This document shows positions 1,550 to 31,291 of a stretch of DNA of 31,867 nt, piece after piece (position 1 is the stretch's first letter; each line of letters begins with the position of its first letter). Where the stretch lies: positions 1 through 31,867 of the IMG/VR virus record IMGVR_UViG_3300017991_000291. One strand, given 5' to 3'. The notes below the pieces were generated by a model that searched no databases, was not told the origin of the DNA, and saw only the letters and a program-made list of their open reading frames with translations. This stretch comes from a virus. Its lineage: Duplodnaviria; Caudoviricetes. The position numbers were made by a program, and so were the translations under genes.

Positions 1550-1684
1550 TTACGGTAACGTATGAATTACGTCATATGGTGGAGTATACATCACGCTTTG
1601 GTATATAGCAACACTCAAAAAGAAAATCAACATGGCTGCCAGATACCATGATATGTACTTGTTGTTATCGTGCTCATTTTTCAT
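1550..1684 (-). CDS. Small membrane protein, 44 aa (MKNEHDNNKYISWYLAAMLIFF...)
   Basis: ATG lies in the junction of the upstream ORF (GGAGGATTTTGATTATG); one hydrophobic helix. Confidence 0.5.
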   Translation of the reverse strand: MKNEHDNNKYISWYLAAMLIFFLSVAIYQSVMYTPPYDVIHTLP

Positions 1685-1862
1685 AATCAAAATCCTCCAA
1701 TAGTTGCACTTCTTTCCAACGTTGAGCGGAACTTGTATTCTGAAAAACATTACCAAATGTTTTCACCCACACATCATTAGAATATCTAGTGCAATCCGCG
1801 CTGGTTGCAACATAGTAGGTTGCGTGTGTAATTTTTCGCACACATTTATGACTCGAAATCAT
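1674..1862 (-). CDS. Divergent array-A unit, 62 aa, ends QLLEDFDYEK
   Basis: Keeps the family C-terminal junction and overlap geometry; QV repeat not evident. Confidence 0.55.
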   Translation of the reverse strand: MISSHKCVRKITHATYYVATSADCTRYSNDVWVKTFGNVFQNTSSAQRWKEVQLLEDFDYEK

Positions 1863-2034
1863 CTTCCAGCCCTTCGACTATACTATCCCTACATGCAAGG
1901 TTTACTATATTTTCAACGGGTACAAAAACCATATTCACAATGAATGAAGCAAATACGTTGTGTGAAAGAACACCAACAGACCAATTCGCATTGAGCAAGA
2001 TATCACTCAAAATAAGATCAACAAAGCCTCTCAT
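1846..2034 (-). CDS. Divergent array-A unit, 62 aa, ends GLEDDFES
   Basis: Family-like length and C-terminus; ATGA overlap with the upstream ORF. Confidence 0.55.
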   Translation of the reverse strand: MRGFVDLILSDILLNANWSVGVLSHNVFASFIVNMVFVPVENIVNLACRDSIVEGLEDDFES

Positions 2035-2129
2035 CGAAAAATATCCTGCAATTCACCAAAGATTGCAAATGTCTTAACATCGACAACGCCTCTTGATGTA
2101 TGAAGAAACAGAGACAACAACCTATTCAT
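2031..2129 (-). CDS. Short divergent unit, 32 aa (MNRLLSLFLHTSRGVVDVKTFAIFGELQDIFR)
   Basis: Manual translation; starts in the junction of 2122..2325 and ends in an ATGA overlap. Confidence 0.4.
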   Translation of the reverse strand: MNRLLSLFLHTSRGVVDVKTFAIFGELQDIFR

Positions 2130-2325
2130 AATAATCTTCTTTCAATTGCCGCCCGACTCGCAACTCGACTTGATTCCAAACTCGCTCCCAAACTTGCCAC
2201 CCGACTTGCCGCGCGACTTGGCTATCTACTTGCCACCCGACTTGCCGTCTGACTTGCAACCCGACTTGCTCCCAGACTCGGATTTGATTCTCAACTTGCC
2301 GCTCGGCTTGATCTTCACTCATCAT
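2122..2325 (-). CDS. QVxx repeat mini-protein, 67 aa
   Basis: QVENQIRVWEQVGLQVRRQVGWQV...QLKEDYYE. Confidence 0.75.
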   Translation of the reverse strand: MMSEDQAERQVENQIRVWEQVGLQVRRQVGWQVDSQVARQVGWQVWERVWNQVELRVGRQLKEDYYE

Positions 2326-2479
2326 AAAAATCTTCTTTCAATTGCTGCCCGACTTGCTCCCAGACTTGCCGCCAGACTTGCCGTCCGACTTGCAGCCAGA
2401 CTTGCTGCCAGACTTGCCGATCAACTTGTCGCATGACTTGCAGTCTGATTTGCCGCTCAACTTGATCTTCAATCGTCAT
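2315..2479 (-). CDS. QVxx repeat mini-protein, 54 aa (start revised to MTIEDQV)
   Basis: The track's N-terminal extension is the shadow frame of the upstream repeat; ends QQLKEDFYDE. Confidence 0.75.
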   Translation of the reverse strand: MTIEDQVERQIRLQVMRQVDRQVWQQVWLQVGRQVWRQVWEQVGQQLKEDFYDE

Positions 2480-2669
2480 GATAATCTTCTTCCAATTGCC
2501 ACCCGGTTTGCCAATAGACGTGATTCCAAACTCGCTCCCAAACTTGCCACCCGACTTGCCGATAGACTTGATCCCAGACTTGCCGATAGACTTGATCCCA
2601 GACTTGCCGTCTGACTTGCAACCCGACTCGCCACCGGATTTGCCGCTCAACTTGATCTTCAATCGTCAT
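2469..2669 (-). CDS. QVxx repeat mini-protein, 66 aa (MTIEDQVERQIRW...)
   Basis: Start in the conserved junction; ends WQLEEDYHDD. Confidence 0.75.
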   Translation of the reverse strand: MTIEDQVERQIRWRVGLQVRRQVWDQVYRQVWDQVYRQVGWQVWERVWNHVYWQTGWQLEEDYHDD

Positions 2670-2862
2670 AATAATCTTCATCCAATTGTTGTGTGGTTTG
2701 CAGATAAACTTGCTCCCAGGCGTGCGACCATACTTGCCTATAGACTTGCAACCAGATTTGCACCCAGACTTGCCGCTCGACTTGCCACATGATTTGCTGC
2801 TCGACGTGCTGCCCGACTCGCTGATATATTTGATGCTTGATTTGGTGATCTTCACTCATCAT
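2659..2862 (-). CDS. QVxx repeat mini-protein, 67 aa (MMSEDHQIKHQ...)
   Basis: Start in junction; ends QQLDEDYYDD. Confidence 0.75.
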   Translation of the reverse strand: MMSEDHQIKHQIYQRVGQHVEQQIMWQVERQVWVQIWLQVYRQVWSHAWEQVYLQTTQQLDEDYYDD

Positions 2863-2968
2863 AATAGTCTTCACCCAATTGCTCCCAAACCTGCCACCAA
2901 ACATGCCGCCAGACTTGATCCTCAACTTGCGGCCAAATTTGCTTATCTACTTGTTCTTTACTCATCAT
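2852..2968 (-). CDS. QVxx repeat mini-protein, 38 aa (MMSKEQVDKQ...)
   Basis: Start in junction; ends EQLGEDYYDE. Confidence 0.7.
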   Translation of the reverse strand: MMSKEQVDKQIWPQVEDQVWRHVWWQVWEQLGEDYYDE

Positions 2969-3140
2969 AATCATCTCTGACTTGCTGCCTCGCTTGCCGC
3001 CTGACTCGATCCTCAACTTGCCGCCAGACTTGCCACCAAACTTGCCGCCTGAATTGCCATTCGACTTGTTCCTCGACTTGCAGTCCGATTTGCTGCCTGA
3101 CTTGCCGCCTGACTCGATTATCAATCCTTTCGTTATGCAT
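2958..3140 (-). CDS. QVxx repeat mini-protein, 60 aa (MHNERIDNRVRRQV...)
   Basis: ATG at 3140; ends QQVRDDYDE. Confidence 0.75.
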   Translation of the reverse strand: MHNERIDNRVRRQVRQQIGLQVEEQVEWQFRRQVWWQVWRQVEDRVRRQARQQVRDDYDE

Positions 3141-3366
3141 CAAAATCTTCTTTCAGTTGTGGCTTGATGCGCGCCGCGATGCACCCCCTGACTTGGACCT
3201 CAACATCCCATTCAACACGCATCCTAAGTGGCAACCAGACTTGTTCTCTGATTTGTTTCCAATCATCTTGATCATAGATTTGATACCTGAGTTTATCCCA
3301 GACTTGCTGATTGACTTGCCGCCAGAATTGGTGTGTGACTTGTCGCTTAACTTGTTCGTTCATCAT
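3133..3366 (-). CDS. QVxx repeat mini-protein, 77 aa, first intact unit of array A
   Basis: MMNEQVKRQVTHQFWRQVNQQVWD...PQLKEDFDA. Confidence 0.75.
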   Translation of the reverse strand: MMNEQVKRQVTHQFWRQVNQQVWDKLRYQIYDQDDWKQIREQVWLPLRMRVEWDVEVQVRGCIAARIKPQLKEDFDA

Positions 3367-4717: not shown

Positions 4718-5020
4718 TCAACGAACCTGTACGCGCGTCACGATGGTCTGCTTCTCATCCCGCCATTCGCTGTGTTCCTTGATCGTGAACACCACATCCG
4801 CCGTATCACCGACTGCTAGACGACAAACGCCGAAGGTTTTGATGCAATTGCCGTTTTCGTCGCGGAGCGTTGTTATTACCCCACCGCCATAGCGACTTTC
4901 GTAGTGGTGCTTGTGTTCACACGTTACCCTGCTCGCCAAGCGCTTTCCAGGATAGCCAACCCAATTGGAATTCCGCTTGATCTCGGCAAGCTTGGCTTGC
5001 TTGGCAGCTTTCTCTTCTGC
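4718..5020 (-). pseudogene. 5'-truncated gene: C-terminal OB-fold-like domain of a common phage protein
   Basis: SNWVGYPGKR..RYG..LRDENGN..GDT..TIKEHSEWRDEKQTIVTR; sequence upstream of about 5020 is QV repeat in another frame, and the frame has no ATG. Confidence 0.55.
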
Positions 5021-5094
5021 CAATCGACTTGCTGCTCGCCTTGCCGCCAGACTTGCCAATCGATTTGCCGCCCGACTTGTTCTTCAATCTTCAT
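4924..5094 (-). pseudogene. Truncated QVxx unit (26 repeat residues) fused out of frame to the downstream gene
   Basis: MKIEEQVGRQIDWQVWRQGEQQVDWQ then non-repeat tail; first ~70 nt nearly identical to the start of 5084..5281. Confidence 0.65.
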
Positions 5095-5281
5095 AATCTT
5101 TTTCCAATTGCCACCGGACTTGCCACCTGACTTGCTGCCAGACTTGCCACCGTACTCGCCGCCAGACTTGCTGCCAGACTTTATTATTGACTTGCCACCT
5201 GACTTGCCGCACGACTTGCTGCTCGCCTTGCCGCCAGACTTGCCAATCGATTTGCCGCCTGATTTGCTCTTCAATCTTCAT
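5084..5281 (-). CDS. QVxx repeat mini-protein, 65 aa (array B)
   Basis: MKIEEQIRRQIDWQVWRQ...WQLEKDYED; 9 Trp and 15 Gln. Confidence 0.75.
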   Translation of the reverse strand: MKIEEQIRRQIDWQVWRQGEQQVVRQVRWQVNNKVWQQVWRRVRWQVWQQVRWQVRWQLEKDYED

Positions 5282-5298
5282 AATCGCTATCCAATTGC

Positions 5299-5375
5299 TG
5301 GTCGGGGCACGAGGATTTGAACCCCGGACCCCTTGCTCCCAAAGCAAGTGCTCTACCAAGCTGAGCTATACCCCG
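5299..5375 (-). tRNA. tRNA-Pro(TGG)
   Basis: CGGGGTATAGCTCAGCTTGGTAGAGCA-CTTGC-TTTGGGA-GCAAG-GGGTCCGGGGTTCAAATCCTCGTGCCCCGACCA; cloverleaf with encoded CCA. Confidence 0.96.
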
Positions 5376-5912: not shown

Positions 5913-5988
5913 TGGTGCCGAGTGAGGGACTTGAACCCCCAACCACCTGATTACAAATCAGGTGCACTACCAGTTGTGCTAACTCGGC
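5913..5988 (-). tRNA. tRNA-Thr(TGT)
   Basis: GCCGAGT..CCTGA-TTTGTAA-TCAGG..GGTTCAAGTCC..ACTCGGCACCA. Confidence 0.95.
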
Positions 5989-7019
5989 TATATTGCCTTT
6001 GCCAAATTCAGCTTGGCTTTGACGCGGCTTTTAGCAACATGCAATGGTGTTTTGCCAGTCACCGCGCCTGTTTCAAGTATCGACAAAACGCGATGCTTGA
6101 TGTTGTCAATCTCGCGCATATGATCTTGTTTCGTGACGTAGTTGGCCGCTGCAATCACACCACCAGCGTTGGCAATGAAGTCTGGAATATACAAAATATC
6201 CTTTGTTTTCAATGCGTTAGCCAAGTCGTCATCTGCAAGCTGATTGTTTGCAATTCCACAAATTGCCTTGCATTGCAACTGTGCAATAACACCACTTGTC
6301 AGAATTCCACCAAGCGCACACGGAGCCAAAATATCGCACTCCGTCGAAAGAATTTCACTTGAGTGAACAACCGTTGCGTTTAATTCTGTCGCCATTGTCT
6401 GTCCGAGGTTTGGCATGTCGTCATCAATCGTTATATCGGAGATGAACAATTGTCCAACACCGACTTTGTGAAGAAGTCTCGCCAACGCATAGCCGGTTTT
6501 GCCAACCCCTTGAATTGCAACGCTTTTTTGCGTCAAATCCCAACCGTTAAACTCCGCAACGGCGAGAATTGCGTTGAATGCACCGCGTGCTGTGCTTTCC
6601 AAAATTGGCGTTGCTACGCCACAAACATATTCACTCGTTCGAGACACGGCACGCATATCGCCCAGGGTTGAGCCAAAATCAACGGCAGTGTAATATTGCC
6701 CAGCCAACTGATTAACATGTTCACCGAAACACTCGAAAAGTTCTTTACGATCTTTTCCATCCCAAGTGTTTGAAAGTATTACACTTTTCCCACCCCCCAA
6801 CGGAAGATCAGCAGCAGCACATTTGTATGTCATCCCATGTGACAAACGCAGTACGTCTCGCAGAGCATCATTTGGATTGTCATATTTTGCAAAGCGACAA
6901 CCACCAACCGCTGGTCCTAGCGTCGTATCATGAATGGCAATCATGCCACGTAGCCGACCACCCAACCCATTGAACATGAATACTTTTTCATGATTTGCAT
7001 AACTACTGTGTGTGAACAT
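5988..7019 (-). CDS. Leu/Phe/Val-type amino acid dehydrogenase (Glu/Leu/Phe/Val family)
   Basis: IAIHDTTLGPAVGGCR, LRLSHGMTYK, LGGGKSVI, QGVGKTG, PCALGG, GIANNQL, PDFIANAGG. Confidence 0.93.
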   Translation of the reverse strand: MFTHSSYANHEKVFMFNGLGGRLRGMIAIHDTTLGPAVGGCRFAKYDNPNDALRDVLRLSHGMTYKCAAADLPLGGGKSVILSNTWDGKDRKELFECFGEHVNQLAGQYYTAVDFGSTLGDMRAVSRTSEYVCGVATPILESTARGAFNAILAVAEFNGWDLTQKSVAIQGVGKTGYALARLLHKVGVGQLFISDITIDDDMPNLGQTMATELNATVVHSSEILSTECDILAPCALGGILTSGVIAQLQCKAICGIANNQLADDDLANALKTKDILYIPDFIANAGGVIAAANYVTKQDHMREIDNIKHRVLSILETGAVTGKTPLHVAKSRVKAKLNLAKAI

Positions 7020-7324: not shown

Positions 7325-7587
7325 TTTGAATCCATGTTATATGTTAGGCCAATAATTTTGTTGCCGTCTGTTTCATACAGCGATGGTGCACCAAACATGC
7401 TCGTCAACAACTCGATTTGCTCTGCTGACATTTCATTCATCAACTCCTGGCCTTCACACCAGAACATCAACGAAATGCCATCGTCATCAACGCTTATACC
7501 ATTTTCCTTGACGATTTGCAAGTCATCCAGGTGCTTCGTGGTGAAATCCTCGATGTATTTTCGTTTGGAACTTGTGCGACGGGGCAT
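7321..7587 (-). CDS. Hypothetical protein, 88 aa
   Basis: AGGAG RBS; overlaps the speD 3' end by 65 nt. Confidence 0.55.
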   Translation of the reverse strand: MPRRTSSKRKYIEDFTTKHLDDLQIVKENGISVDDDGISLMFWCEGQELMNEMSAEQIELLTSMFGAPSLYETDGNKIIGLTYNMDSK

Positions 7588-7933
7588 GGCCTTCTTCTCC
7601 TAGATATTTAACGATATTTTGGATGCATTCAAAAGCATCACACGATCCGCACATATAGACATCCAGAGTGGCCAAATTGTATTCTGGCCATGTATGGACG
7701 GATGCATGGCTTTCTGACAAGACTAGCATTCCTGTGAACCCACCAAAATCAGAATTCTCGCCGGGGAAATCGTTAACCGATCTATACAGAATGGTTGCGC
7801 CTTCTGCGAGAACAGCACGTTCCATGATATTCATCAGAATTGCTGAGTTGTTGGAAAAACACACTTGGTTCAATTCTGGTTCCCACCGCAAATCCAACAT
7901 TGCGTGTTTTCCGACATATGGTATCGCTTTCAT
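7523..7933 (-). CDS. speD: S-adenosylmethionine decarboxylase proenzyme (class 1B)
   Basis: GKH..LDL, GFTGMLVLSE/SHASVHTWPE, DVYMCG, C-terminal RG. Confidence 0.92.
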   Translation of the reverse strand: MKAIPYVGKHAMLDLRWEPELNQVCFSNNSAILMNIMERAVLAEGATILYRSVNDFPGENSDFGGFTGMLVLSESHASVHTWPEYNLATLDVYMCGSCDAFECIQNIVKYLGEEGHAPSHKFQTKIHRGFHHEAPG

Positions 7934-8888: not shown

Positions 8889-10040
8889 CTAGAAGGGAAT
8901 TTCGTCATCATCATTTGATGTTGGTGTGGGTGTTTCGTTGCTGGCATTGACATCGATCTTCGAATACAAGTCCTTGAATGCCGTCTTGCTGTCCGCCTCG
9001 AAGCGAGATACACACAGTTCGATTGCCTTCATACGATCACCGAAGATAGCATACGTCTGAACGATGTGACAGAGACGACGCGTTGTGATGACATCTTCAA
9101 CACCGTCATCTTCGTATGTCTTGCGAATTGCATCGGCCCAAAGAACCAGCTTGTCCGCGAATTCCTCGTCAACTTTACCAACATGATCCATGTGCTTCAT
9201 GATGATGCGCTTTTCGACAGCAGGCGTCGGATAAGGCTGGCAGAACGTCAGGATAAAACGCTCCATCAGAGCCTCGTCGAGAATTCGCGCAGAGATGAAC
9301 TTGCCATCGTCAGAACCACGGCCCAACGTGTTGCCAGTTGCGATCACCGTGAAGCCAGGGGCAGGGTGTACCAGTTCGCCAGTCTTCTTGATCAGGATCG
9401 GCTTGCCTTCCAGAACGCCTTGAAGGCACATCAAAGGGCGCTCAGGCCGATCCATCTCGTCAATGAGCAGAACCGCGCCTCGTTTCATCGCACGTACCAC
9501 AGGGCCTTCTGAGAATACGGTAGCGCCATTTTCGAGACGGAAGCCACCAATCAAGCTGTCTTCATCAGTATCTTCGCTGATCTGAACACGGAGCATTTCA
9601 CGACCAAGCCGTGCACATGCCTGCTCGACCATGAAGGTTTTGCCGTTGCCAGAGAGACCAGCAATCCAGATCGGATAGAACGTGCCAGATGCAATGATCT
9701 TTTCAACGTCCTTGGCATGTCCCCACTTGACGTAGAGGTTGTTCTTATTTGGCACGAAAATCTCTTCGCGAATTTGCGGGGTGTTCTGAAACACGTCAGC
9801 CTTGGAAACTTCATCGACCTCGGTTTGTGGCTTCCGTTCGATGGGAACGATCAGAGCGTTGAAATTGTAGAAGCCTTTGTGAATTTTCTGCATCTTGTTT
9901 TGCAGCGACTTTGCCACAGTTGGGTGCGCGCCGAGACGGGCACACATCTCATTGATGTCGCGAGTGCGAACATCACCAAGCGGGTATTCGTTGGCGAGTG
10001 TGTCGAGAATGGTGCTTTCGGTTTGAGTCAAAGTGGTCAT
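8889..10040 (-). CDS. cobS: CobS/MoxR-like AAA+ ATPase (phage CobS family)
   Basis: GLSGNGKT, DEDSLIGGFRL, LLIDEMD, TGNTLGRGSDDGKF, LDEALMERF, ITTRRL. Confidence 0.9.
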   Translation of the reverse strand: MTTLTQTESTILDTLANEYPLGDVRTRDINEMCARLGAHPTVAKSLQNKMQKIHKGFYNFNALIVPIERKPQTEVDEVSKADVFQNTPQIREEIFVPNKNNLYVKWGHAKDVEKIIASGTFYPIWIAGLSGNGKTFMVEQACARLGREMLRVQISEDTDEDSLIGGFRLENGATVFSEGPVVRAMKRGAVLLIDEMDRPERPLMCLQGVLEGKPILIKKTGELVHPAPGFTVIATGNTLGRGSDDGKFISARILDEALMERFILTFCQPYPTPAVEKRIIMKHMDHVGKVDEEFADKLVLWADAIRKTYEDDGVEDVITTRRLCHIVQTYAIFGDRMKAIELCVSRFEADSKTAFKDLYSKIDVNASNETPTPTSNDDDEIPF

Positions 10041-10082
10041 TTGATGTTCCTTAAGTCTCGTGTTGTCCGTTGTTGATGATTA

Positions 10083-10111
10083 GTTATCGCATGTCTGGGA
10101 GAGGAAGTCAA
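10083..10111 (-). promoter_or_regulatory. Early promoter
   Basis: TTGACT (10111-10106), 17 nt ending ATGC, GATAAC (10088-10083). Confidence 0.75.
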
Positions 10112-10112
10112 G

Positions 10113-10139
10113 AAAAAAGTTGGGCCGAAGCCCAACTTT
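10113..10139 (-). terminator. Rho-independent terminator
   Basis: AAAGTTGGGC-TTCG-GCCCAACTTTTTT right after the VWA gene stop. Confidence 0.9.
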
Positions 10140-10140
10140 C

Positions 10141-12240
10141 TTATGCAATCAGATCAATGAATTTGTTCACAATGATCCGAGTGCCACGCTTAGAACCAGC
10201 GTGCTTCTTGAAGGCATTGATAATCCTGCCTTTTGTCGCAGTTGGATCGAATTCCAGTTCTTCCGTGAAAGCATTCAGCGATGCCGACTTGACAGGAATG
10301 TTGAAGCGACGATCATAACCATCAACATCGTCTTCAACCATCGGCTCTGCATCAGCTTTCCATTCCAGTCCCATCATCATGGCTTGACTTCTTTCAGCCA
10401 GGATGAAATGCGTGACTGTATCGACAGCACCACTTTTACGATACCAATCATAGATGCCCTTGGTGAATTTGCTGATAGCATTTCTAAAATCCGTATTGCT
10501 ATCAACGCACAGCATCGTGCGCTTATCGAGCATGACACGATCCGCGCGTTCGCGTCTTCCAGTTGCACTGTATTGAGACATCCACTGAGGCGCACCATCT
10601 GTTAAAACAACCATATTCATCTTATCAAGATTGTGACGAATTTTGAGTTCCTTAACAGCCGGTTGTAGTGCGATCAGTGCCTCAAACATTGGAGTACCGC
10701 CCATAGACATTCTAGCGCCAATCAGATGATTACAAGCAGCCTTGAATTCGTTCTTGCTCATTTCGCTGGACAACAACTCCAACACATTCACAGAACGCAT
10801 ATCGAGAGTTGCTATTGCTTTGTCGTCCGAAAGACTTCGTGAAGGGGAAAAAGCTCCCCCTGAAGTGAAAGAATAAACCGCGAACGGAATATTCGCCTTC
10901 CTACAGAACATCGCCAAAATAATCGCCTGACGAATGACTTTATGTATCACGCTGCTCATTGAGCCCGATGAGTCGATGAGCATAACCATTCCATGCGATT
11001 TTCCAGTTGGCAGTTTCATACCACGCAGGAAAATCTCATCGTTGTAGCGATACTCGTGCAAGCGAGACATATTGAGCGAACCCGTCTTGACGACTTTGGC
11101 CATTTTGTACTGCGCCGCTTTGCGCTTCATCGTGAATTCTTTGACCAAGGCGTTCACAGCCGCACTATTATCCTTGGCAAATTCATCATATGCACCAAAG
11201 GTATTAGCATTACCCAGAGTCAACTTTCTGATGCAACCCTTGCGTGCTTTATCAGAGACAGGCTGCGCAACAGGAGAACCGTCGCCGGAAAATTGTTGTT
11301 CGACGTTTTTCTCCATTGAACGCAACGTTTTCGAGATCAGCTTGTCTGCCAATTCTTCATCAGTGATGGTTTCTTCTGGACGCATCTTACCAGCACCAGA
11401 CCCCAACTCACTGTCAGCGTTTTTGCTGTTGAGACCTACGGTTTTGGCATCATCACCAGCATCGGTTTCTTCACCGTCACCGTTACTAGAACCATCACCA
11501 TCCGTCTCGCCGCTATCTTTGCCGACGCCATCATCACCAGCTTCGGCACTGGTATCGCCTTCACCTTCACCGTTGCCTTCACCAGCAGCAGCGTCTTCTT
11601 CGCCTTCTTTTCTGTCCATCCCATCCTTTTCTTGAGAGATGCCATTGTCCATCATGACATCCTGCATGCTCTTTTCGGCTTCGTCGAACTTTTTGCCGAG
11701 ATGGGCAACGATGTCCTTTGACAACTGAATAACCTCGGCAAAGGTCTCGGTGGTGTAGCACCGATCAAACAGAACTTGCTCTTCTGGCGTGAATTCCACA
11801 GTCACCAGATCACGAGCCTTGGCTTTCAGGTTGATGCGATCCAGAAATCCCATGTCAAACACGGAGAAATCGCGCTTCTTACCGACACTGAAAAAGTCCA
11901 TATCCATTATGTGCTTGTAGCCACGGCGGAAATCCTTGACCAAGCCAGGATACCGACGAAGGATCAGTCGCTCAATGCGAACATCCTCGACGATGTTGAC
12001 CAAATCTTGAAACTTCGGATTTTCTTTGACATAAGAAATCCACTCTTCCAGCGGGGTGTAGAGTGCGTGCGAAACCTCGTGGCCGACCAGCATGTCGTAC
12101 GTTTCTTCGTTGTTCCAAGCCGGAAGACCCAGAGTGCGCGTTTTGATGTCGAAGAAAGCAGTCTTGTAGTTGCCGTGCTGCACATCAATGTTCTCGTTGG
12201 CAAGCAGCCTAGCAAAGACTTCTTTGTGGGTGAGTATCAT
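10141..12240 (-). CDS. CobT-like metallopeptidase / VWA domain protein (MoxR partner)
   Basis: GHEVSHALYT (HExxH), NIVEDVRIE, acidic Gly-rich linker, MIDAS DSSGSM / GGTP / LTDG. Confidence 0.88.
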   Translation of the reverse strand: MILTHKEVFARLLANENIDVQHGNYKTAFFDIKTRTLGLPAWNNEETYDMLVGHEVSHALYTPLEEWISYVKENPKFQDLVNIVEDVRIERLILRRYPGLVKDFRRGYKHIMDMDFFSVGKKRDFSVFDMGFLDRINLKAKARDLVTVEFTPEEQVLFDRCYTTETFAEVIQLSKDIVAHLGKKFDEAEKSMQDVMMDNGISQEKDGMDRKEGEEDAAAGEGNGEGEGDTSAEAGDDGVGKDSGETDGDGSSNGDGEETDAGDDAKTVGLNSKNADSELGSGAGKMRPEETITDEELADKLISKTLRSMEKNVEQQFSGDGSPVAQPVSDKARKGCIRKLTLGNANTFGAYDEFAKDNSAAVNALVKEFTMKRKAAQYKMAKVVKTGSLNMSRLHEYRYNDEIFLRGMKLPTGKSHGMVMLIDSSGSMSSVIHKVIRQAIILAMFCRKANIPFAVYSFTSGGAFSPSRSLSDDKAIATLDMRSVNVLELLSSEMSKNEFKAACNHLIGARMSMGGTPMFEALIALQPAVKELKIRHNLDKMNMVVLTDGAPQWMSQYSATGRRERADRVMLDKRTMLCVDSNTDFRNAISKFTKGIYDWYRKSGAVDTVTHFILAERSQAMMMGLEWKADAEPMVEDDVDGYDRRFNIPVKSASLNAFTEELEFDPTATKGRIINAFKKHAGSKRGTRIIVNKFIDLIA

Positions 12241-25496: not shown

Positions 25497-25709
25497 TCAC
25501 ACTTCTTTAATGTGTACCTCATACACTGGTATTTCACTAAAAACAGTGTTTTTTCTAACGATATCTAGAATTTCCCATTGTCTATTTTGACCCAAAGTGG
25601 AAAATTTTTTCACATCCCCGACAGTGAAATTTTCAAACCATCGAAAATGTGTCAACAGTTGCCCGTTCTCTATGAAATGAACGTAACCATAAAAACGATC
25701 TTCGATCAC
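25497..25709 (-). CDS. Hypothetical protein, about 70 aa
   Basis: GTGA overlap with the last array-C unit. Confidence 0.55.
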   Translation of the reverse strand: MIEDRFYGYVHFIENGQLLTHFRWFENFTVGDVKKFSTLGQNRQWEILDIVRKNTVFSEIPVYEVHIKEV

Positions 25710-25888
25710 CGACAATTTTCATCCCATCCATCACAATCCTCCATAACTTGCCATAAGATTTGCTGATTGACTTGCCGCCAGATTTGCCGCCAGACTTGCC
25801 ACACAACTTGATCATATACTTGCTCCAAAACTTTCTGATCGACTTGCTGATCGATTTGAACCAAGAATGATTTTACGTTATACATCAT
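25706..25888 (-). CDS. QVxx repeat mini-protein
   Basis: QIDQQVDQKVLEQVYDQVVWQVWRQIWRQV. Confidence 0.7.
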   Translation of the reverse strand: MMYNVKSFLVQIDQQVDQKVLEQVYDQVVWQVWRQIWRQVNQQILWQVMEDCDGWDENCR

Positions 25889-26054
25889 AATCATCCATGA
25901 TTTGCCAGAAGACTTGCTGATTGGCTTGCTTATTGACTTGCCGCCAGACTTTCTGATTAACTTCCTGATCTACTTTCAGATTGACTAACCAAGCAACTTT
26001 ATTCCAGACTTGATGTGCGCCGCATCCGAATGTTTTATATATCAATTCCATCAT
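25878..26054 (-). CDS. QVxx repeat mini-protein
   Basis: QEVNQKVWRQVNKQANQQVFWQIMDDYDV. Confidence 0.7.
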   Translation of the reverse strand: MMELIYKTFGCGAHQVWNKVAWLVNLKVDQEVNQKVWRQVNKQANQQVFWQIMDDYDV

Positions 26055-26226
26055 AATCATCCATAGCTTGCCGCTTGGCTTTCAACCAAACTCGATCCCC
26101 AACTTGCCACCATACTTGCTGATCAATTTGCCGCCAGACTTGCTGATCGAATTTCCGCCTGACTTGCCGCAAGACTTTCTCTCTGACTTGCCATCCGATT
26201 TGTATATCAATTCTCGCGTTATCCAT
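26035..26226 (-). CDS. QVxx repeat mini-protein (MDNARIDIQIGWQV...)
   Basis: Start in junction. Confidence 0.7.
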   Translation of the reverse strand: MDNARIDIQIGWQVREKVLRQVRRKFDQQVWRQIDQQVWWQVGDRVWLKAKRQAMDDYDGIDI

Positions 26227-26413
26227 CAAAATCCTTCCAAAGTTGAAAATAGCCTTGCTGCCAGCGTTGCCGATTAACTTTCTGCCAGAGTTGCCACACA
26301 ACTTGATCATATACTTGCCCCAAGACTTTCTGACGAACGTTTTCCAGACATTGCGCATCGATAGAAGAAAACCCTTGCTGCCCGACTTGATCAACGATTT
26401 TTATTTTATTCAT
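26219..26413 (-). CDS. QVxx repeat mini-protein (MNKIKIVDQV...)
   Basis: Shares QKVL.QVYDQVVWQ with 25706..25888. Confidence 0.7.
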   Translation of the reverse strand: MNKIKIVDQVGQQGFSSIDAQCLENVRQKVLGQVYDQVVWQLWQKVNRQRWQQGYFQLWKDFDG

Positions 26414-26591
26414 CAAAATCATCCACCAATTGACGCCAATATTGCCACTGCTTTATTTCTTCTATTCGTCTCCTACCCTTGCTTTGTATTCTCACAAACA
26501 CTTCCATGTAAATATTACGAGATACATGACACGAAACATTCAATCTCGACGCATCAATATGATGCAATGCAGAATCCTTAGCACCGACCAT
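26406..26591 (-). CDS. Divergent family member, ends YWRQLVDDFDE
   Basis: Junction retained, repeat decayed. Confidence 0.55.
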   Translation of the reverse strand: MVGAKDSALHHIDASRLNVSCHVSRNIYMEVFVRIQSKGRRRIEEIKQWQYWRQLVDDFDE

Positions 26592-26610
26592 AACCAAACA
26601 CCCATCTGAT

Positions 26611-26644
26611 AAAAAAAACCGGCGTAGGTTTCCCCACGCCGGTT
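26611..26644 (-). terminator. Rho-independent terminator closing the DUF6745 operon
   Basis: AACCGGCGTGGG-GAAA-CCTACGCCGG-TTTTTTTT. Confidence 0.92.
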
Positions 26645-26673
26645 ACTCCTACCAACTCAAACAATACGCACTA

Positions 26674-27015
26674 CTAGTCCTGAACGCGACGATAGCCTTC
26701 TGGCGTGTACTCGCGCTGACGGATGATTCTGTAGTCACCCGGCTCAAGGAGCAGAGATTCGTGTGTATCATAGTCGCGAAGGTGAGTAAGCTCACTCGCG
26801 CGATGAAGCGTCAGAAACGCTTCAAGTTCGTTGTCCGGGTTTTCGAACATGCTTGCATCATTACGATCCAGCACGTGGTGGTGCCCGGTTTCAGAGTGCG
26901 TGACAATCAGGTGGTTCCCTTCCGGCGCAACCTCTTTCAGATTGCTTCGGTCGAAGCTGTCCACACGCATGATCATCACATCACCCTGAGCAGCGATTTT
27001 CTTGAAAGTTCTCAT
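26674..27015 (-). CDS. His-rich conserved partner of DUF6745 proteins
   Basis: QGDV..HSETGHHH..LTH...DTH..L.PG.Y.I.RQREY.P...RRV.D; GAGGA RBS, ATG 1 nt after the upstream stop. Confidence 0.8.
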   Translation of the reverse strand: MRTFKKIAAQGDVMIMRVDSFDRSNLKEVAPEGNHLIVTHSETGHHHVLDRNDASMFENPDNELEAFLTLHRASELTHLRDYDTHESLLLEPGDYRIIRQREYTPEGYRRVQD

Positions 27016-27016
27016 A

Positions 27017-27907
27017 TTACGTCCTCACTTCTGGTTTGACAAACTCGTTGACATCGATACCCCATGTGCTCGCTTGCGCTTCCATGGCAGTATTGACATC
27101 AGGCGGCACGGGAATGGCAAAAAATCGTCCAGTCCCACACTTCACACGCAAGAACCTTTCGGTTCCAACGTCAGGGAGATCGACTTCAAGCAGAGTGCCG
27201 ATCTCAGGATCATCATCCTGATGGATGACCTTGGCATCAAGTTGGTTGAGAACGCTTTCCCACCCAACGATTTCAGAAAAACACCGGCGCTGTTCGATGT
27301 CTTCCCACGTCAACGCGATACGCGGATCGAGTTGGCTTTTCGGCGTCATCAGCCATTCACGCGGTACACGCGTGCCATGCCAACAACAAACAGTCCAACC
27401 ATCGCGATAACGCAGCGAAGGTCCTTCTTCACTGTGTTGCCGCCCTTCGTCATCGAGTTTGATGAATTCGGGACGATTGACAATCACAGCAACATCCTCT
27501 TCCCACCACACGTTGTCACAGGCAGAACAGAGTTCTTCAAAAACCTTGAAGTTTGCGAGCGTTTCGTTCTCCCAATTGAGAACGTCACGGAAGAAGGTGA
27601 TATAAGCGCACGAAGAAACTTGCGAAGAACCGCAATACAGCTTCGAAATCCCATCGTAACATTCTTGTTTTGTTGGCTCACGGCCAAGCTGATGTTCCAG
27701 GCCCATCTTGATTGCTGCAAACGGGGAGTCTGCAAAAAGCACAGTTGGGCGCGGACGCTCGATGATGTCGTAAATTTTCAGAACACGCTCTTTTGCGTAC
27801 TCGAAATCCACGGGTTCAGTGGAAAGACCAATCTTCACCCATTTCTCAGTCCAACCAGGAATTTGTGCTTCCTGTTCAGGTGTCATGCTCTCGATTTTCT
27901 CAGGCAT
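27017..27907 (-). CDS. DUF6745-type protein lacking the internal QV/QL repeat
   Basis: TPEQEA..KW..IGLSTEP.D..DSP; RP....DDEGRQHSEEGP..Y.DGW...WHG.RVP; EQRR; PVPP...TA.EA.A.TWG. Family recognised from memory of these motifs. Confidence 0.8.
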   Translation of the reverse strand: MPEKIESMTPEQEAQIPGWTEKWVKIGLSTEPVDFEYAKERVLKIYDIIERPRPTVLFADSPFAAIKMGLEHQLGREPTKQECYDGISKLYCGSSQVSSCAYITFFRDVLNWENETLANFKVFEELCSACDNVWWEEDVAVIVNRPEFIKLDDEGRQHSEEGPSLRYRDGWTVCCWHGTRVPREWLMTPKSQLDPRIALTWEDIEQRRCFSEIVGWESVLNQLDAKVIHQDDDPEIGTLLEVDLPDVGTERFLRVKCGTGRFFAIPVPPDVNTAMEAQASTWGIDVNEFVKPEVRT

Positions 27908-27941
27908 ATAAAAATCCTATTGTTTCTGCCGTCACTCAAAT

Positions 27942-27979
27942 TGTCTACCACAAGTTCTATTTACTGTCAACAACCTTTT
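27942..27979 (-). promoter_or_regulatory. Early promoter of the DUF6745 operon
   Basis: AAAAGGTTG-TTGACA (27970-27965), 17 nt ending TGTGG, TAGACA (27947-27942). Confidence 0.7.
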
Positions 27980-28055
27980 ACATTTTTCTGCTCCCTCTGT
28001 TCAATGTCTTAACCTCTTCAAGATGAACACACCCTAGCAAAGTTGTGTGGTGTCG

Positions 28056-28223
28056 TCAAGCACCTTTTTTAAAATCTTCCCTCGCCTGACTTATGAAGTG
28101 TTTTTCGAAATTCATATTAGCGTTTATAGCTTTCCTGAGTTGCCATCTGACTGCTATGTTGATACGTACGGCTTGCAATGCAGACAGGAATCTAATCGAC
28201 CCAACTTTGCTACATATTGTCAT
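28056..28223 (-). CDS. Divergent terminal unit, 55 aa (MTICSKV...QAREDFKKGA)
   Basis: Start in junction; family-like end. Confidence 0.55.
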   Translation of the reverse strand: MTICSKVGSIRFLSALQAVRINIAVRWQLRKAINANMNFEKHFISQAREDFKKGA

Positions 28224-28410
28224 GATAATCATCCATAACTTGCTTCCTGGCATCCCGCCAGACTTGCTCATCGACTTGTCGATAGACTTGCCACCAGACT
28301 TGCCAATTGATATGACGTTCGACATACAGCCAGAATTGATCATTGAGTTGATCCCAGAGTTGCTGATCAATTTTCCGCCCGACTTGATTATTCATTTGCT
28401 CTTCATTCAT
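28210..28410 (-). CDS. QVxx repeat mini-protein (MNEEQMNNQV...)
   Basis: Ends QVMDDYHDNM; paralog of 28578..28772. Confidence 0.72.
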   Translation of the reverse strand: MNEEQMNNQVGRKIDQQLWDQLNDQFWLYVERHINWQVWWQVYRQVDEQVWRDARKQVMDDYHDNM

Positions 28411-28585
28411 GATAATCATCCATAACTTGCTGCTTAGTTTGCCACCCAACACGCAAATAAACATCCTGCACCTGTTCCCATTCTACTATATTCCATACTT
28501 GCCGCTTGAGTTGTATACTTAATTGGTTTCTGGATGTCTCATAGACTTGCTCATAGATTCGATAGTGGATTCGGTGTTTAATCAT
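28403..28585 (-). CDS. QVxx repeat mini-protein (MIKHRIHY...)
   Basis: Ends QQVMDDYHE. Confidence 0.7.
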   Translation of the reverse strand: MIKHRIHYRIYEQVYETSRNQLSIQLKRQVWNIVEWEQVQDVYLRVGWQTKQQVMDDYHE

Positions 28586-28772
28586 GATAATCATCCATAA
28601 CTTGATGAACAACTTTCAAATTGCATTGCTCTTCGACTTGCCGATAGACTTGCCGCCAGACTTGCACTTGGGCTTGTTGCCATAGTTGCTGCCCGATTTG
28701 CCGATTGATATGATGTCCGACATACAGCCAGAATTGCTCATAAACCGGATCGTAGATTTGCTCTTCATTCAT
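28578..28772 (-). CDS. QVxx repeat mini-protein (MNEEQIYDPV...)
   Basis: Ends HQVMDDYHD. Confidence 0.72.
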   Translation of the reverse strand: MNEEQIYDPVYEQFWLYVGHHINRQIGQQLWQQAQVQVWRQVYRQVEEQCNLKVVHQVMDDYHD

Positions 28773-28944
28773 GATAATCCTCTTTCAATTGATCCACTTC
28801 TTGCCGCCCGACATGCCACCAAACACGCCCATCCGCTCTCCACCAGACAAATTCTCTAACAATATATCGAATATCTTTATCAATACACTTCCAGACTTTT
28901 GCGTTGAACACAACCAAAAATGTTCTGTCGATATCAAGATGCAT
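28765..28944 (-). CDS. Family member, 59 aa (MHLDIDRTFL...DQLKEDYHE), below the track cutoff
   Basis: Manual translation; paralog of 29100..29288. Confidence 0.7.
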   Translation of the reverse strand: MHLDIDRTFLVVFNAKVWKCIDKDIRYIVREFVWWRADGRVWWHVGRQEVDQLKEDYHE

Positions 28945-29110
28945 GAAAATCTTCTCTCGCTTGTTGACGCGCTTGTTTGTCGGCTTGTAGTCTCGTGTTT
29001 TCTAAAATGTCCCACCAAACCGGCACATAAACTGCGCTATTAATATTGTCCACCATCATATTCCATATTGGAGTTTCAACTTTCTTCTCAACTTCAATAT
29101 CAATCCTCAT
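28934..29110 (-). CDS. Family member, 58 aa (MRIDIEVEKKV...QQAREDFHAS), below the track cutoff
   Basis: Manual translation. Confidence 0.65.
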   Translation of the reverse strand: MRIDIEVEKKVETPIWNMMVDNINSAVYVPVWWDILENTRLQADKQARQQAREDFHAS

Positions 29111-29288
29111 GATAATCCTCTTTCAATTGATCCACTTCATGCCGCCCAACTTGCCGCCACCAAACACGTCCATCCGCTCTCAACCAGACAACTTCGCCAA
29201 CAAGATATCGAATATCTCTATCAATATACTCCCAGGTTTTTGCGCATGCATTCGCCCAAAACGTTTTGTTTATATCAGTAATCTTCAT
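29100..29288 (-). CDS. Family member, 62 aa (MKITDINKTF...)
   Basis: Ends DQLKEDYHED. Confidence 0.7.
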   Translation of the reverse strand: MKITDINKTFWANACAKTWEYIDRDIRYLVGEVVWLRADGRVWWRQVGRHEVDQLKEDYHED

Positions 29289-29463
29289 GATAATCGTCTT
29301 TCAGTTGCCCATCAACTTGCCACTTGAGTTGCATCCAGACTTGATCCCAAACTTGACCCCAGACTTGTTGATTGACTTGCCGCAAGGTCTGATCCCCGAC
29401 GCACCGATCTACGCACATCATTACCTGCCACCAAACTTGCTCATTGCATTGTCGTTCATTCAT
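29275..29463 (-). CDS. QVxx repeat mini-protein (MNERQCNEQV...)
   Basis: Ends GQLKDDYHEDY. Confidence 0.72.
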   Translation of the reverse strand: MNERQCNEQVWWQVMMCVDRCVGDQTLRQVNQQVWGQVWDQVWMQLKWQVDGQLKDDYHEDY

Positions 29464-29623
29464 GATAATCATCTTTCAGTTGCGACCAATTTTGACACTT
29501 GACTTGCCACCAGACTTCATTTCTGACATGCCACCAAACGAACTGTTTGACTTGATGCTCGATTTTCAGGATTGATCCAAAGACTTGCCAATCAATCTGT
29601 TGTTCGATCCGTTGTTCATTCAT
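29456..29623 (-). CDS. QVxx repeat mini-protein, 55 aa (MNEQRIEQQIDWQV...), below the track cutoff
   Basis: Manual translation; ends QNWSQLKDDYHE. Confidence 0.7.
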   Translation of the reverse strand: MNEQRIEQQIDWQVFGSILKIEHQVKQFVWWHVRNEVWWQVKCQNWSQLKDDYHE

Positions 29624-29810
29624 GATAATCATCTTTCAGTTGCGACCAATTTTGATCCCAAACTTGCTGATCGTTTTGATCCCAGAATTTCCAATTGATT
29701 TGCTCCAAGATTTGCATCCTAATTTGCATTCTGGTTTGATCCGAACTTTGATTCCAGCTTTGGTATTCGATTTGATCCCTGACTTGCCGCCAGACTTGAT
29801 GCCTAATCAC
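29616..29810 (-). CDS. QVxx repeat mini-protein (GTG 29810 or ATG 29819 start)
   Basis: Ends QNWSQLKDDYHE. Confidence 0.7.
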   Translation of the reverse strand: MIRHQVWRQVRDQIEYQSWNQSSDQTRMQIRMQILEQINWKFWDQNDQQVWDQNWSQLKDDYHE

Positions 29811-29991
29811 GCCAATCATCCTTCAATTGCATCTCTGCACCCCCTCCCTGTTGCGCCCACAATCGATCATCAAGCTTCTGTTTGATTTGCTGCCAGAGTT
29901 GCCATTCAACATGCCGCACGGTTCGAGAAAAAATTTCCATAAGAACTTGCGTCCCAACTTGCTTAATTTGCCAACATTGATCTTCATGCAT
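29803..29991 (-). CDS. QVxx repeat mini-protein (MHEDQCWQI...)
   Basis: Ends MQLKDDWRD. Confidence 0.68.
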   Translation of the reverse strand: MHEDQCWQIKQVGTQVLMEIFSRTVRHVEWQLWQQIKQKLDDRLWAQQGGGAEMQLKDDWRD

Positions 29992-30169
29992 CAAAAGCAC
30001 CTCTCAATTGCTGCCTAACGTGAAACCTGAATTGCAGCCAGACTTGCTCCCCGGCTTGATCCCACACTTGCTTCTCGACTTGCTCTTCGACTTGTCGCTC
30101 GACGTACTGCTCGACTTCTCGCACAACTTGCCACATAATTATCTGCTGAACTAGATGATCAATTTTCAT
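29984..30169 (-). CDS. QVxx repeat mini-protein (MKIDHLVQQ...)
   Basis: Ends QQLRGAFDA. Confidence 0.72.
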   Translation of the reverse strand: MKIDHLVQQIIMWQVVREVEQYVERQVEEQVEKQVWDQAGEQVWLQFRFHVRQQLRGAFDA

Positions 30170-30365
30170 CAAAATCACCTCTCAATTGCTGTCTAGCGTG
30201 AAACCTGACTTGTCGATCAACTTGCATCCATACTTGCTTCTCGACTTGATCCCAAACTTGACACCTGACTTGCTCTTCGGTTTGATCCCACGCTTGTCGC
30301 TTGATTTGCTGCAAGATTCGTCGATCAATTCGAAACCAAACATTTTCAATTCTTTTGCCGTTCAT
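30159..30365 (-). CDS. QVxx repeat mini-protein (MNGKRIENVW...), mosaic
   Basis: Ends QQLRGDFDEN. Confidence 0.75.
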   Translation of the reverse strand: MNGKRIENVWFRIDRRILQQIKRQAWDQTEEQVRCQVWDQVEKQVWMQVDRQVRFHARQQLRGDFDEN

Positions 30366-30561
30366 TGCAATCATACCTCAATTGCCTCAAAACGTGCCGC
30401 CAGATTTGCCGATCAACTTGATCCCATACTTGCTTCTCGACTTGATCCCAAACTTGACACCTGACTTGCTCTTCGACTTGCTGCCAGATTTGCGTCCTGC
30501 CTTCTCGGTAGATTTGTTGATCAATTCGAAACCAAACATTTTCAATTCTTTTGCCGTTCAT
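30346..30561 (-). CDS. QVxx repeat mini-protein (MNGKRIENVW...)
   Basis: Ends RQLRYDCNERQKN. Confidence 0.75.
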   Translation of the reverse strand: MNGKRIENVWFRIDQQIYREGRTQIWQQVEEQVRCQVWDQVEKQVWDQVDRQIWRHVLRQLRYDCNERQKN

Positions 30562-30757
30562 TGCAATCATACCTCAATTGCCTCAAAACGTGCCGCCAGA
30601 TTTGCCGATCAGCTTGCCGCCAGACTTGATCTTCGGCTTGATCCCATACTTGCTTCTCGACTTGCTCTTCGGCTTGATCCCATACTTGCGTCCTGACTTG
30701 CTGCCAGATTTGTAGATCAACTTGCAACCAAATATTTTCAATTCTTTTACTGTTCAT
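30542..30757 (-). CDS. QVxx repeat mini-protein (MNSKRIENIW...)
   Basis: Ends RQLRYDCNERQKN. Confidence 0.75.
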   Translation of the reverse strand: MNSKRIENIWLQVDLQIWQQVRTQVWDQAEEQVEKQVWDQAEDQVWRQADRQIWRHVLRQLRYDCNERQKN

Positions 30758-30950
30758 CAAAATCACCTCTCAATTGCTCTTTAAAATGAAACCGATGCTG
30801 ATAGACTTGATCCCATACTTGATTCTCGACTTGATCCCATACTTGATCCCAGGATTGCTCTTCGGTTTGATCCCACGCTTGTCGCTTGATTTGCTGCAAG
30901 ATTTGTAAATCAACTTGCAACCAAACGTCTTCAACTCTTTCGTTATTCAT
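30747..30950 (-). CDS. QVxx repeat mini-protein (MNNERVEDVW...)
   Basis: Ends EQLRGDFDEQ. Confidence 0.75.
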   Translation of the reverse strand: MNNERVEDVWLQVDLQILQQIKRQAWDQTEEQSWDQVWDQVENQVWDQVYQHRFHFKEQLRGDFDEQ

Positions 30951-31101
30951 TGCAATCTTCCATCAATTGCCCCTGTATTTGCCGTACAGTTTGATGTCCT
31001 ATTCTCTTGCTGGTTTTCCGCCTGACTTTACCGCCAATTTGCCGTCCTATTTGGCCCCAGACTTGCCACGTGAATGTCCGCCAGATATTCATTTCAATCA
31101 T
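30943..31101 (-). CDS. QVxx repeat mini-protein, 52 aa (MIEMNIWRTFTWQVWGQI...), below the track cutoff
   Basis: Manual translation; ends GQLMEDCNE. Confidence 0.68.
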   Translation of the reverse strand: MIEMNIWRTFTWQVWGQIGRQIGGKVRRKTSKRIGHQTVRQIQGQLMEDCNE

Positions 31102-31291
31102 AATGATCTTCCTTCAATTGCATCCTGGCCTTTCGCCAAACGCTAAACGTGACAGCCCACTCAACTTCCCATCTAACAGACCTCCCGACCAACAATCGTG
31201 TGCTTACAGAACAACAATCAATACATTCCTTATGCGTTGCCCATCTGACATGTTCATCCAACAATGCATCGACCATTGCAAATTTCCTCAT
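31094..31291 (-). CDS. Divergent first unit of array D, 65 aa
   Basis: ATGA overlap with the MazG-like gene; ends MQLKEDHYD. Confidence 0.62.
   Translation of the reverse strand: MRKFAMVDALLDEHVRWATHKECIDCCSVSTRLLVGRSVRWEVEWAVTFSVWRKARMQLKEDHYD

Follow-up and report, generated by a model that had tools for sequence, protein, structure and literature searches.

What are the many short, repetitive open reading frames (ORFs) that crowd around a single conserved gene pair in a phage genome, and do they have anything to do with that pair? This question is raised by the IMG/VR record IMGVR_UViG_3300017991_000291, from an uncultured T4-like phage; the window analyzed here is the entire viral record of 31,867 bp. 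A preliminary description of this DNA had reported 23 short ORFs (18 upstream and 5 downstream) around genes for a DUF6745-type protein and a histidine-rich partner, and all of them are present, on the minus strand. Their repeat unit is x-Q-V-(W/R/G/E). Judged by sequence comparison, these mini-ORFs are free-standing copies of a repeat tract that is internal to other DUF6745 proteins, and the DUF6745 protein of the window is a form without the tract. That the units are the internal tract of other DUF6745 proteins is the key fact that the preliminary description overlooked.

Among the 120 core homologs listed of 604, two classes were found, one of approximately 286 to 300 amino acids (aa) without an insert and one of 310 to 490 aa with an insert at a single slot; in the long class, the insert was often a run of QVxx tetrapeptides, such as QVWS, QVES, and QVRD. 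Conversely, a profile of the mini-proteins matched 1052 representatives; 140 of the best 150 were at least 250 aa long, and 133 of these 140 long proteins contained parts of DUF6745. The window protein scored 80.3 bits against PF20530 (Pfam cut-off, 27) but has a linker of 35 aa at the slot where relatives hold up to approximately 285 aa, often as tetrapeptide repeat, and the stretch from its SP helix to the W..F..FFRD motif, where the fused form has the tetrapeptide tract, contains no repeat. Fused tracts occur in QV, QL, SV, SL, NL, and AT flavors, and the residue after the dipeptide is rich in W, R, G, E, and Y in all six (AT also uses D, and NL also S) as well as in the mini-proteins. When a fused relative was modeled, its insert came out as a helix running on from the core. 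The link between the mini-genes and DUF6745 is strong.

We surveyed 221 loci in addition to the window, with 176 DUF6745 ORFs complete enough for measuring, and used the fused loci as the control; a set chosen by the RNase H gene (5 loci, 2 of them this phage) was not scored. With duplicates included, mini-ORFs were found at 93 of the 112 loci with a linker of at most 45 aa (459 ORFs in 1055 kb), at 1 of the 64 loci with a longer linker by the QV profile, and at none of the 31 loci with a long V/I/L repeat inside (403 kb). A flavor-free detector additionally found NAT mini-ORFs at L201, L209, and L214. Clustering at 80% identity gave 98 clusters, and 87 nonredundant representatives remained after 11 rows were dropped (2 with only two or three repeats, and 9 with <3 kb of flank and no mini-ORFs). 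The repeat was inside the core in 25 of them, 1 with and 24 without mini-ORFs, and not inside in 62, 44 with and 18 without. The preliminary description had named co-occurrence as a check on its association of the arrays with DUF6745, and the presence of mini-ORFs does depend on the state of the DUF6745 gene (1 of 25 versus 44 of 62, the rows being related).

A scan by repeat pattern alone found 137 overlapping loci. Of these, 24 had a fused gene without mini-ORFs, 32 had mini-ORFs and a core that was short or partial, one was locus L268 (described below), 3 had only the partner, and 77 had no core, most of the last being short stretches or fragments. In whole records with a fused gene (five, three of them complete), all 14 profile matches lay in a single long frame in 5 of 5, whereas whole records of the repeat-less types held 8 to 71 profile matches in 4 of 5. 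All four complete genomes with QV mini-ORFs, three of which were found by pattern alone, encode a repeat-poor core and one partner. For 10 mini-bearing records with no core nearby, DUF6745 was found elsewhere in 2, and the other 8 are 2 to 63% complete. A search of cultured phages with the low-complexity filter on returned no match to a mini-protein.

The relation between the two forms is not that of a single split. A tree in which the split forms make up one clade was rejected (approximately unbiased test, p = 1e-75; 17 versus 27 rows), and the tree needs six changes of state, four of them forced by strong branches, with the direction unrooted. On this tree, the split form arose several times. 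The flavor of the mini-ORF repeat (QV, QL, or NAT) also matches that of the nearest fused relatives: L029 and L181 have QL mini-ORFs, and their cores group with a fused QL protein (support 87–94); and L209 falls within the AT clade and has NAT mini-ORFs. L003 is the sister of the fused L082. A scan for the NAT pattern found four contigs, three of them with a repeat-less core of the L209 type amid NAT mini-ORFs. In the complete 369-kb genome of a jumbo phage, G014 (G014:C1:336608-358022; loci L268 and L372), DUF6745 itself is cut at the insertion slot, and the order is a 103-aa N-terminal half, a 58-aa ORF, 9 mini-ORFs, a 334-aa C-terminal half, 38 more mini-ORFs in the stretch examined, and the partner, so that this genome has at least 47 mini-genes, with the partner 17 kb behind the C-terminal half. 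The protein P0248 resembles another C-terminal half and begins with repeats.

These arrangements bear on whether the mini-proteins need the core. They might have taken over the job of the insert yet act alone, as decoys or binders, with the core having a separate job with its partner. Some arrays indeed lie 20 to 40 kb from the core (in the window and in G002), a copy number that reaches 47 or more per genome exceeds what one core needs at a time, and some cores have neither repeat nor mini-ORFs. Most arrays, however, adjoin the core and the partner, the flavors follow the lineage of the core, and the halves of the G014 core are separate genes that would have to assemble in trans, and we consider independent action unlikely.

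The window places the system among T4-like genes (B12-type ribonucleotide reductase, ThyX, RNase H, PhoH, a MazG-like gene, and three tRNAs). The minus-strand order is primase, MazG-like gene, 18 mini-ORFs, two promoter-like sites, DUF6745, His-rich partner, terminator, 5 mini-ORFs, a 72-aa ORF, thyX, and the reductase (Table 1). A near-identical locus, L001, contributes a primase and structural genes besides; over the two arrays and the core, it differs from the window at a single site, where one unit has a Tyr/His change. Regarding the proposal that the gene pair forms a promoter-to-terminator unit, the terminator end holds, with a strong intrinsic-terminator-like hairpin at 26617-26644 after the partner. 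Two of the four TTGAC-N17-TAG sites on the minus strand of the window lie in the 150-bp gap upstream of DUF6745, but a general promoter scan gave 11 sites against 10.7 expected, with no excess of promoter-like sites, and the two sites are therefore plausible only.

Table 1 Features of the arrays and the gene pair, in window coordinates unless another locus is named
Feature	Position	Strand	Family
Upstream array, 18 overlapping mini-ORFs (52-71 aa), chained to MazG-like gene	28056..31291	-	
Promoter-like site TTGACG-N17-TAGGGT, A-tract upstream (predicted)	28031..28059	-	
Second promoter-like site TTGACA-N17-TAGACA (predicted)	27942..27970	-	
DUF6745 protein, 296 aa, repeat-less form	27017..27907	-	Pfam PF20530
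His-rich partner, 113 aa	26674..27015	-	phrog_27831
Intrinsic-terminator-like hairpin, 12 pairs and T-run, behind partner	26617..26644	-	
Downstream array, 5 overlapping mini-ORFs (57-64 aa), first degenerate; then 72-aa ORF and thyX	25706..26597	-	
Distant array after tRNA-Pro, one intact unit and one frameshifted copy	4924..5281	-	
Distant array, 7 overlapping units (37-77 aa)	2122..3366	-	
Three chained ORFs (32, 62, and 62 aa), no repeat, two with acidic junction	1674..2129	-	
Chained repeat-less ORFs	L157:3386-5932; L049:5451-8703; L111:11352-11917		

The 23 mini-ORFs are as uniform in size as described before (52–71 aa) and very different in sequence, with a median pairwise identity of 27% (range 4–73%, 253 pairs). 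The 18 upstream ORFs consist of 17 chained units and a degenerate one at 28056-28223. Chaining without intergenic DNA was borne out, each within-array junction being an overlap of 8 to 20 nt, and the first upstream ORF shares an ATGA overlap with the MazG-like gene; this leaves no space for a hidden broken unit between ORFs. The "about 12" further members reported in two distant arrays correspond to 9 clear and 3 degenerate ones. The 9 were found by a hidden Markov model, 7 at 2122-3366 and 2 at 4924-5281, one of them frameshifted, and the 3 chained ORFs at 1674..2129 are probably degenerate units, their membership being suggested by chaining alone. The total for the phage is approximately 30. 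Variation had been placed at the x positions of Q-V-x-x; those positions do vary, but so do the Q and V slots and the register. Six of the 23 units are nearly without repeat (0–2 Q-[VIL] pairs) and still hold frame and length, and the upstream units that have mostly lost the repeat are those at 31094, 29100, 28934, 28765, and 28056. A noncoding repeat array, such as clustered regularly interspaced short palindromic repeats (CRISPR) or a structured RNA, was ruled out, as there was no Rfam match and no repeat-spacer layout; the Rfam scan of the window returned three tRNAs and nothing else, and the mini-units are open frames.

Other features of the window lie farther from the gene pair. At 4924-5375, a mini-gene pair begins right after the tRNA-Pro, and the second copy is frameshifted past approximately 27 codons. 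The phage also encodes a Glu/Leu/Phe/Val dehydrogenase (5988-7019) and an S-adenosylmethionine decarboxylase (7523-7933), and at 8889-12240 a CbbQ-like AAA ATPase adjoins a 699-aa protein without a Pfam match, in which there is presumably a motif like that of von Willebrand factor A domains.

We then asked whether the units are kept as proteins. The 22 units tested contained no internal stop, although 633 of their 1351 codons (47%) are one step from a stop, and the remaining two sense frames contained 45 and 110 stops. If neutral substitutions affected 10% of sites, the chance of finding all 22 still open would be approximately 1e-10. The pairing energy of the ribosome-binding sites upstream of the units averaged −4.2 kcal/mol against −2.5 kcal/mol in the same region (P = 0.0002), and the acidic end of each unit encodes the ribosome-binding site and the start of the next. 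These results indicate that the mini-units are kept as proteins. Neutral decay, with frequent stops or frameshifts, had been named as a pattern that would speak against the system, and the stop-free units do not follow it. The arrangement is real, selected, and recurrent.

The codons show how the units vary. Gln and Val codons are nearly uniform within a lineage and different between lineages, which indicates that the 12-mers are homogenized while Q-V is kept as protein. Among 1020 Q/V slots from 28 loci, TAA was never found at the Q slot, and the same C-to-T change at the V codon was seen 35 times; the V slot contained Asp twice and Gly twice against 38 Ile and 19 Ala. In CAA-type arrays, CAG is approximately six times rarer than CGA at the Gln slot, and GTG is rare as well. 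No positions of the 12-mer are more fixed than the two A of CAA, and variation lies at positions 7 to 12. The ends of the mini-proteins are fixed within a phage and different between phages, and strains with 98 to 100% identical core DNA have different orders of mini-ORFs between fixed ends. The slot of fused proteins also holds long nonrepeat inserts in some relatives, and in the fused and the split states alike, repeats seem to give way to unique sequence by drift. At L111, L157, and L049, chained ORFs of 45 to 83 aa without repeat occupy the array positions, with the usual MKSV start kept at L157; these are possibly small proteins born from repeat units.

Such homogenization would also be expected if the arrays were a by-product, in which a slippage-prone tract escaped and multiplies by recombination, gene conversion and the avoidance of polarity keep the frames open, and the peptides are idle. 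The uniform Gln and Val codons of each lineage, a ratio of nonsynonymous to synonymous changes (pN/pS) near 1, the depletion of CAG, and the decay of units at array edges all fit this explanation. It does not sit well with 22 units that are stop-free at a median identity of 27%, with degenerate units that are past conversion and still keep frame, length, and junction, with the avoidance of Asp and Gly at the V slot, or with the recurrence of the pattern in at least four lineages; moreover, no gene behind the 18-unit array depends on it, provided that the two promoter-like sites are real. We regard it as quite unlikely. Another explanation treats the units as DNA cassettes that recombine into DUF6745, or the chain as one long repeat protein made by frameshifting. 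Although the 12-bp repeats have a fixed hexamer and a single frame offset is common to all window junctions, CAAGTY occurs once in the core gene against 49 times in the upstream array, mini-ORFs differ between strains with identical core DNA, and the 4-nt overlaps in other phages have a different frame offset; this explanation is largely refuted, and hardly any weight is left to it.

The core itself gave few clues to its function. The structure model of the window DUF6745 protein was confident (predicted local distance difference test [pLDDT], 94.9), but a fold search found no clear match (best E value of 0.27 by Foldseek; best Z score of 4.2 by VIA), and sequence searches gave none either. 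Matches in a viral structure library were DUF6745 proteins and uncharacterized fragments, and a search of the Atlas gave only viral clusters without names and assigned the partner to family PF31129. Atlas clusters of the partner are 80 to 88% viral. The partner carries HSETGHxH, H78, H85, E106, and a C-terminal D, with His, Glu, and Thr residues invariant in the alignment, from which we infer that it binds metal. It was found at 75 of 79 viral DUF6745 loci and adjoins DUF6745 in the window. Fusions of the partner to DUF6745 exist in one Atlas cluster of 50 and at L009, which suggests a single complex; at L009:9767-10852, the two share one 361-aa frame, and the same core is a separate gene in L011. 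The homolog P0129 is fused to an SMI1/KNR4 domain (PF09346), a family known from toxin-immunity systems. More widely, P0124-P0126, P0129, and P0130 show DUF6745 fused to SMI1/KNR4 or to DUF4116 repeats (PF13475), and the partner joined to HNH (PF13392). Two DUF6745 genes per locus occur at L091, L097, L115, L124, and L062, several with long nonrepeat inserts, and the N terminus encoded at 3045-4046 of L062 is rich in Gly and Ser. No functional gene recurred in a survey of the neighbors: the first two families were other-frame readings of the partner and of the mini-ORFs, and the third-ranked family occurred in only 7 of 98 loci.

Invariant His, Glu, Arg, and Cys/Thr residues in the two-gene unit, the many variable short ORFs with fixed ends beside it, and the existence of fused as well as split forms could alternatively point to a pair that modifies or cleaves the units as precursor peptides or substrates. 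The fixed ends, however, are not the same from phage to phage, and the overlap and the ribosome-binding site account for them. The fused tract is internal rather than terminal, and searches of Pfam, NCBIfam, and PDB, by sequence and by fold, gave no match to a known modifying enzyme family; any such enzyme here would be of a new family. A precursor role is very improbable.

We lean, with modest confidence, toward the reading that the detached copies of the tract make small helical proteins, which would serve as exchangeable variable parts acting with the repeat-less DUF6745 protein and its partner. Translation would very probably run through each array in a coupled chain, with the ribosome-binding site and start of one unit lying in the acidic end of the unit before it. 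Slippage and recombination of the 12-bp units would quite probably reshuffle the W/R/G/E/Y residues while older units drift to unique sequence, giving many surfaces simultaneously. The constant unit would probably consist of the core and partner, with host-type promoters driving its expression early or in the middle phase; in the cultured Microcystis phage Ma-LMM01, the homologous pair gp174/gp175 is transcribed with the middle genes, at a log2 value of approximately 12 in fragments per kilobase per million (FPKM) at 3 h, according to Table S3 of PMC5780444. Binding of the mini-proteins to the core at or near the emptied slot is slightly favored. That their surfaces recognize or distract variable host targets is a tentative step, a little short of an even chance, for which hypervariability, copy number, and timing point to phage–host conflict. 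In the boldest form, a novel type of diversification system, the variable recognition module of a protein complex left its gene several times to become a co-expressed library of up to 50 exchangeable mini-subunits; recombination of the 12-bp units would shuffle them, they would plug into a single constant metal-binding core and face many host targets simultaneously, and the arrays would serve as a nursery where repeats drift to unique small proteins. This form is speculative and somewhat doubtful.

Several observations weigh against this reading of variable parts acting with the core. The independent-pairs test comprised only five pairs and was not significant, and most split loci form one clade of 40 rows. 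No mini-ORFs were detected near 18 of the 62 cores without internal repeat, the whole genome of Ma-LMM01 has no QV mini-ORFs, and L175, L036, L026, L012, L034, and L056 have no chained nonrepeat ORFs at the array positions. L214 has both the repeat inside and mini-ORFs, and the record G001 (63% complete) has 8 mini-ORFs and neither core nor partner. The middle of the modeled fused insert has a pLDDT below 50. At the Q slot, the synonymous CAG (3) is rarer than the nonsynonymous CGA (18) and AAA (22), and this depletion points to a DNA or RNA constraint. Assembly errors in repeats could contribute to the strain differences in mini-ORFs. The searches of defense families found no link. Finally, pN/pS was 0.56 to 0.87, below 1, in the 8 closest paralog pairs of the window, so diversifying selection is not demonstrated; of the earlier suggestion of selection for a diverse protein repertoire, the purging of stops and the ribosome-binding sites sustain the protein part, and positive selection is unsupported, as are the decoy, sponge, antidefense, and host-range roles that it proposed.

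If the mini-proteins plug into the core, the phage gives one protein dozens of simultaneous surfaces without rewriting its gene. The fused and split pairs, together with the cultured Ma-LMM01 core pair, make a family without a solved relative directly testable. The arrays also account for one class of the short "hypothetical" genes that large aquatic phages carry, and in them repeat genes are seen to become unique small proteins. A literature search on DUF6745 and five repeat motifs, with subscription journals and bioRxiv supplements outside its reach, found no paper on the system, and a search of PMC7824862 by terms showed no such system; a detached repeat library with a repeat-less core has no counterpart in the literature searched.

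Diversity-generating retroelements, silent-cassette antigenic variation, and polymorphic toxin cassettes combine a fixed scaffold with a fast-changing surface by rewriting one expressed gene. Here, by contrast, each variant is an ORF of its own that begins at its own start, and the core DNA is unchanged; if the reading is true, its mode of diversity differs from that of retroelements and cassette switching. A diversity-generating retroelement was rejected, as the variation is not adenine-specific and the A of CAA is most fixed. No reverse transcriptase was found among the 30 window proteins scanned, the record being a 32-kb fragment. Gene conversion from silent cassettes was likewise rejected on the repeat hexamers (1 versus 49) and on core DNA that is identical where the mini-ORFs differ. 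Libraries of precursors of ribosomally synthesized and post-translationally modified peptides, including fused and split borosins and the prochlorosins, also place many short variable ORFs near one enzyme unit, which in the window is only putative, but here no leader is conserved across phages, the fusion is internal and not terminal, and no known modifying enzyme was matched. Arrays of antidefense proteins, sponges, and decoys likewise consist of small and variable accessory genes that cluster in large lytic phages, whereas all units of the window belong to a single repeat family, which is tied to one core gene, and searches of antidefense families gave no match. Ma-LMM01 gp174/gp175 is, as in the window, a DUF6745 gene and a His-rich partner amid replication and nucleotide genes; unlike the window, gp174 has a long nonrepeat insert in a genome without QV mini-ORFs. 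The fused DUF6745 proteins (PF20530, phrog_31813; P0046, P0097, L079, and the SL-flavored gene of MW202476, L361) have the same core, partner, repeat unit, and W/R/G/E alphabet, and the window differs from them in encoding the tract as approximately 30 separate ORFs outside the protein.

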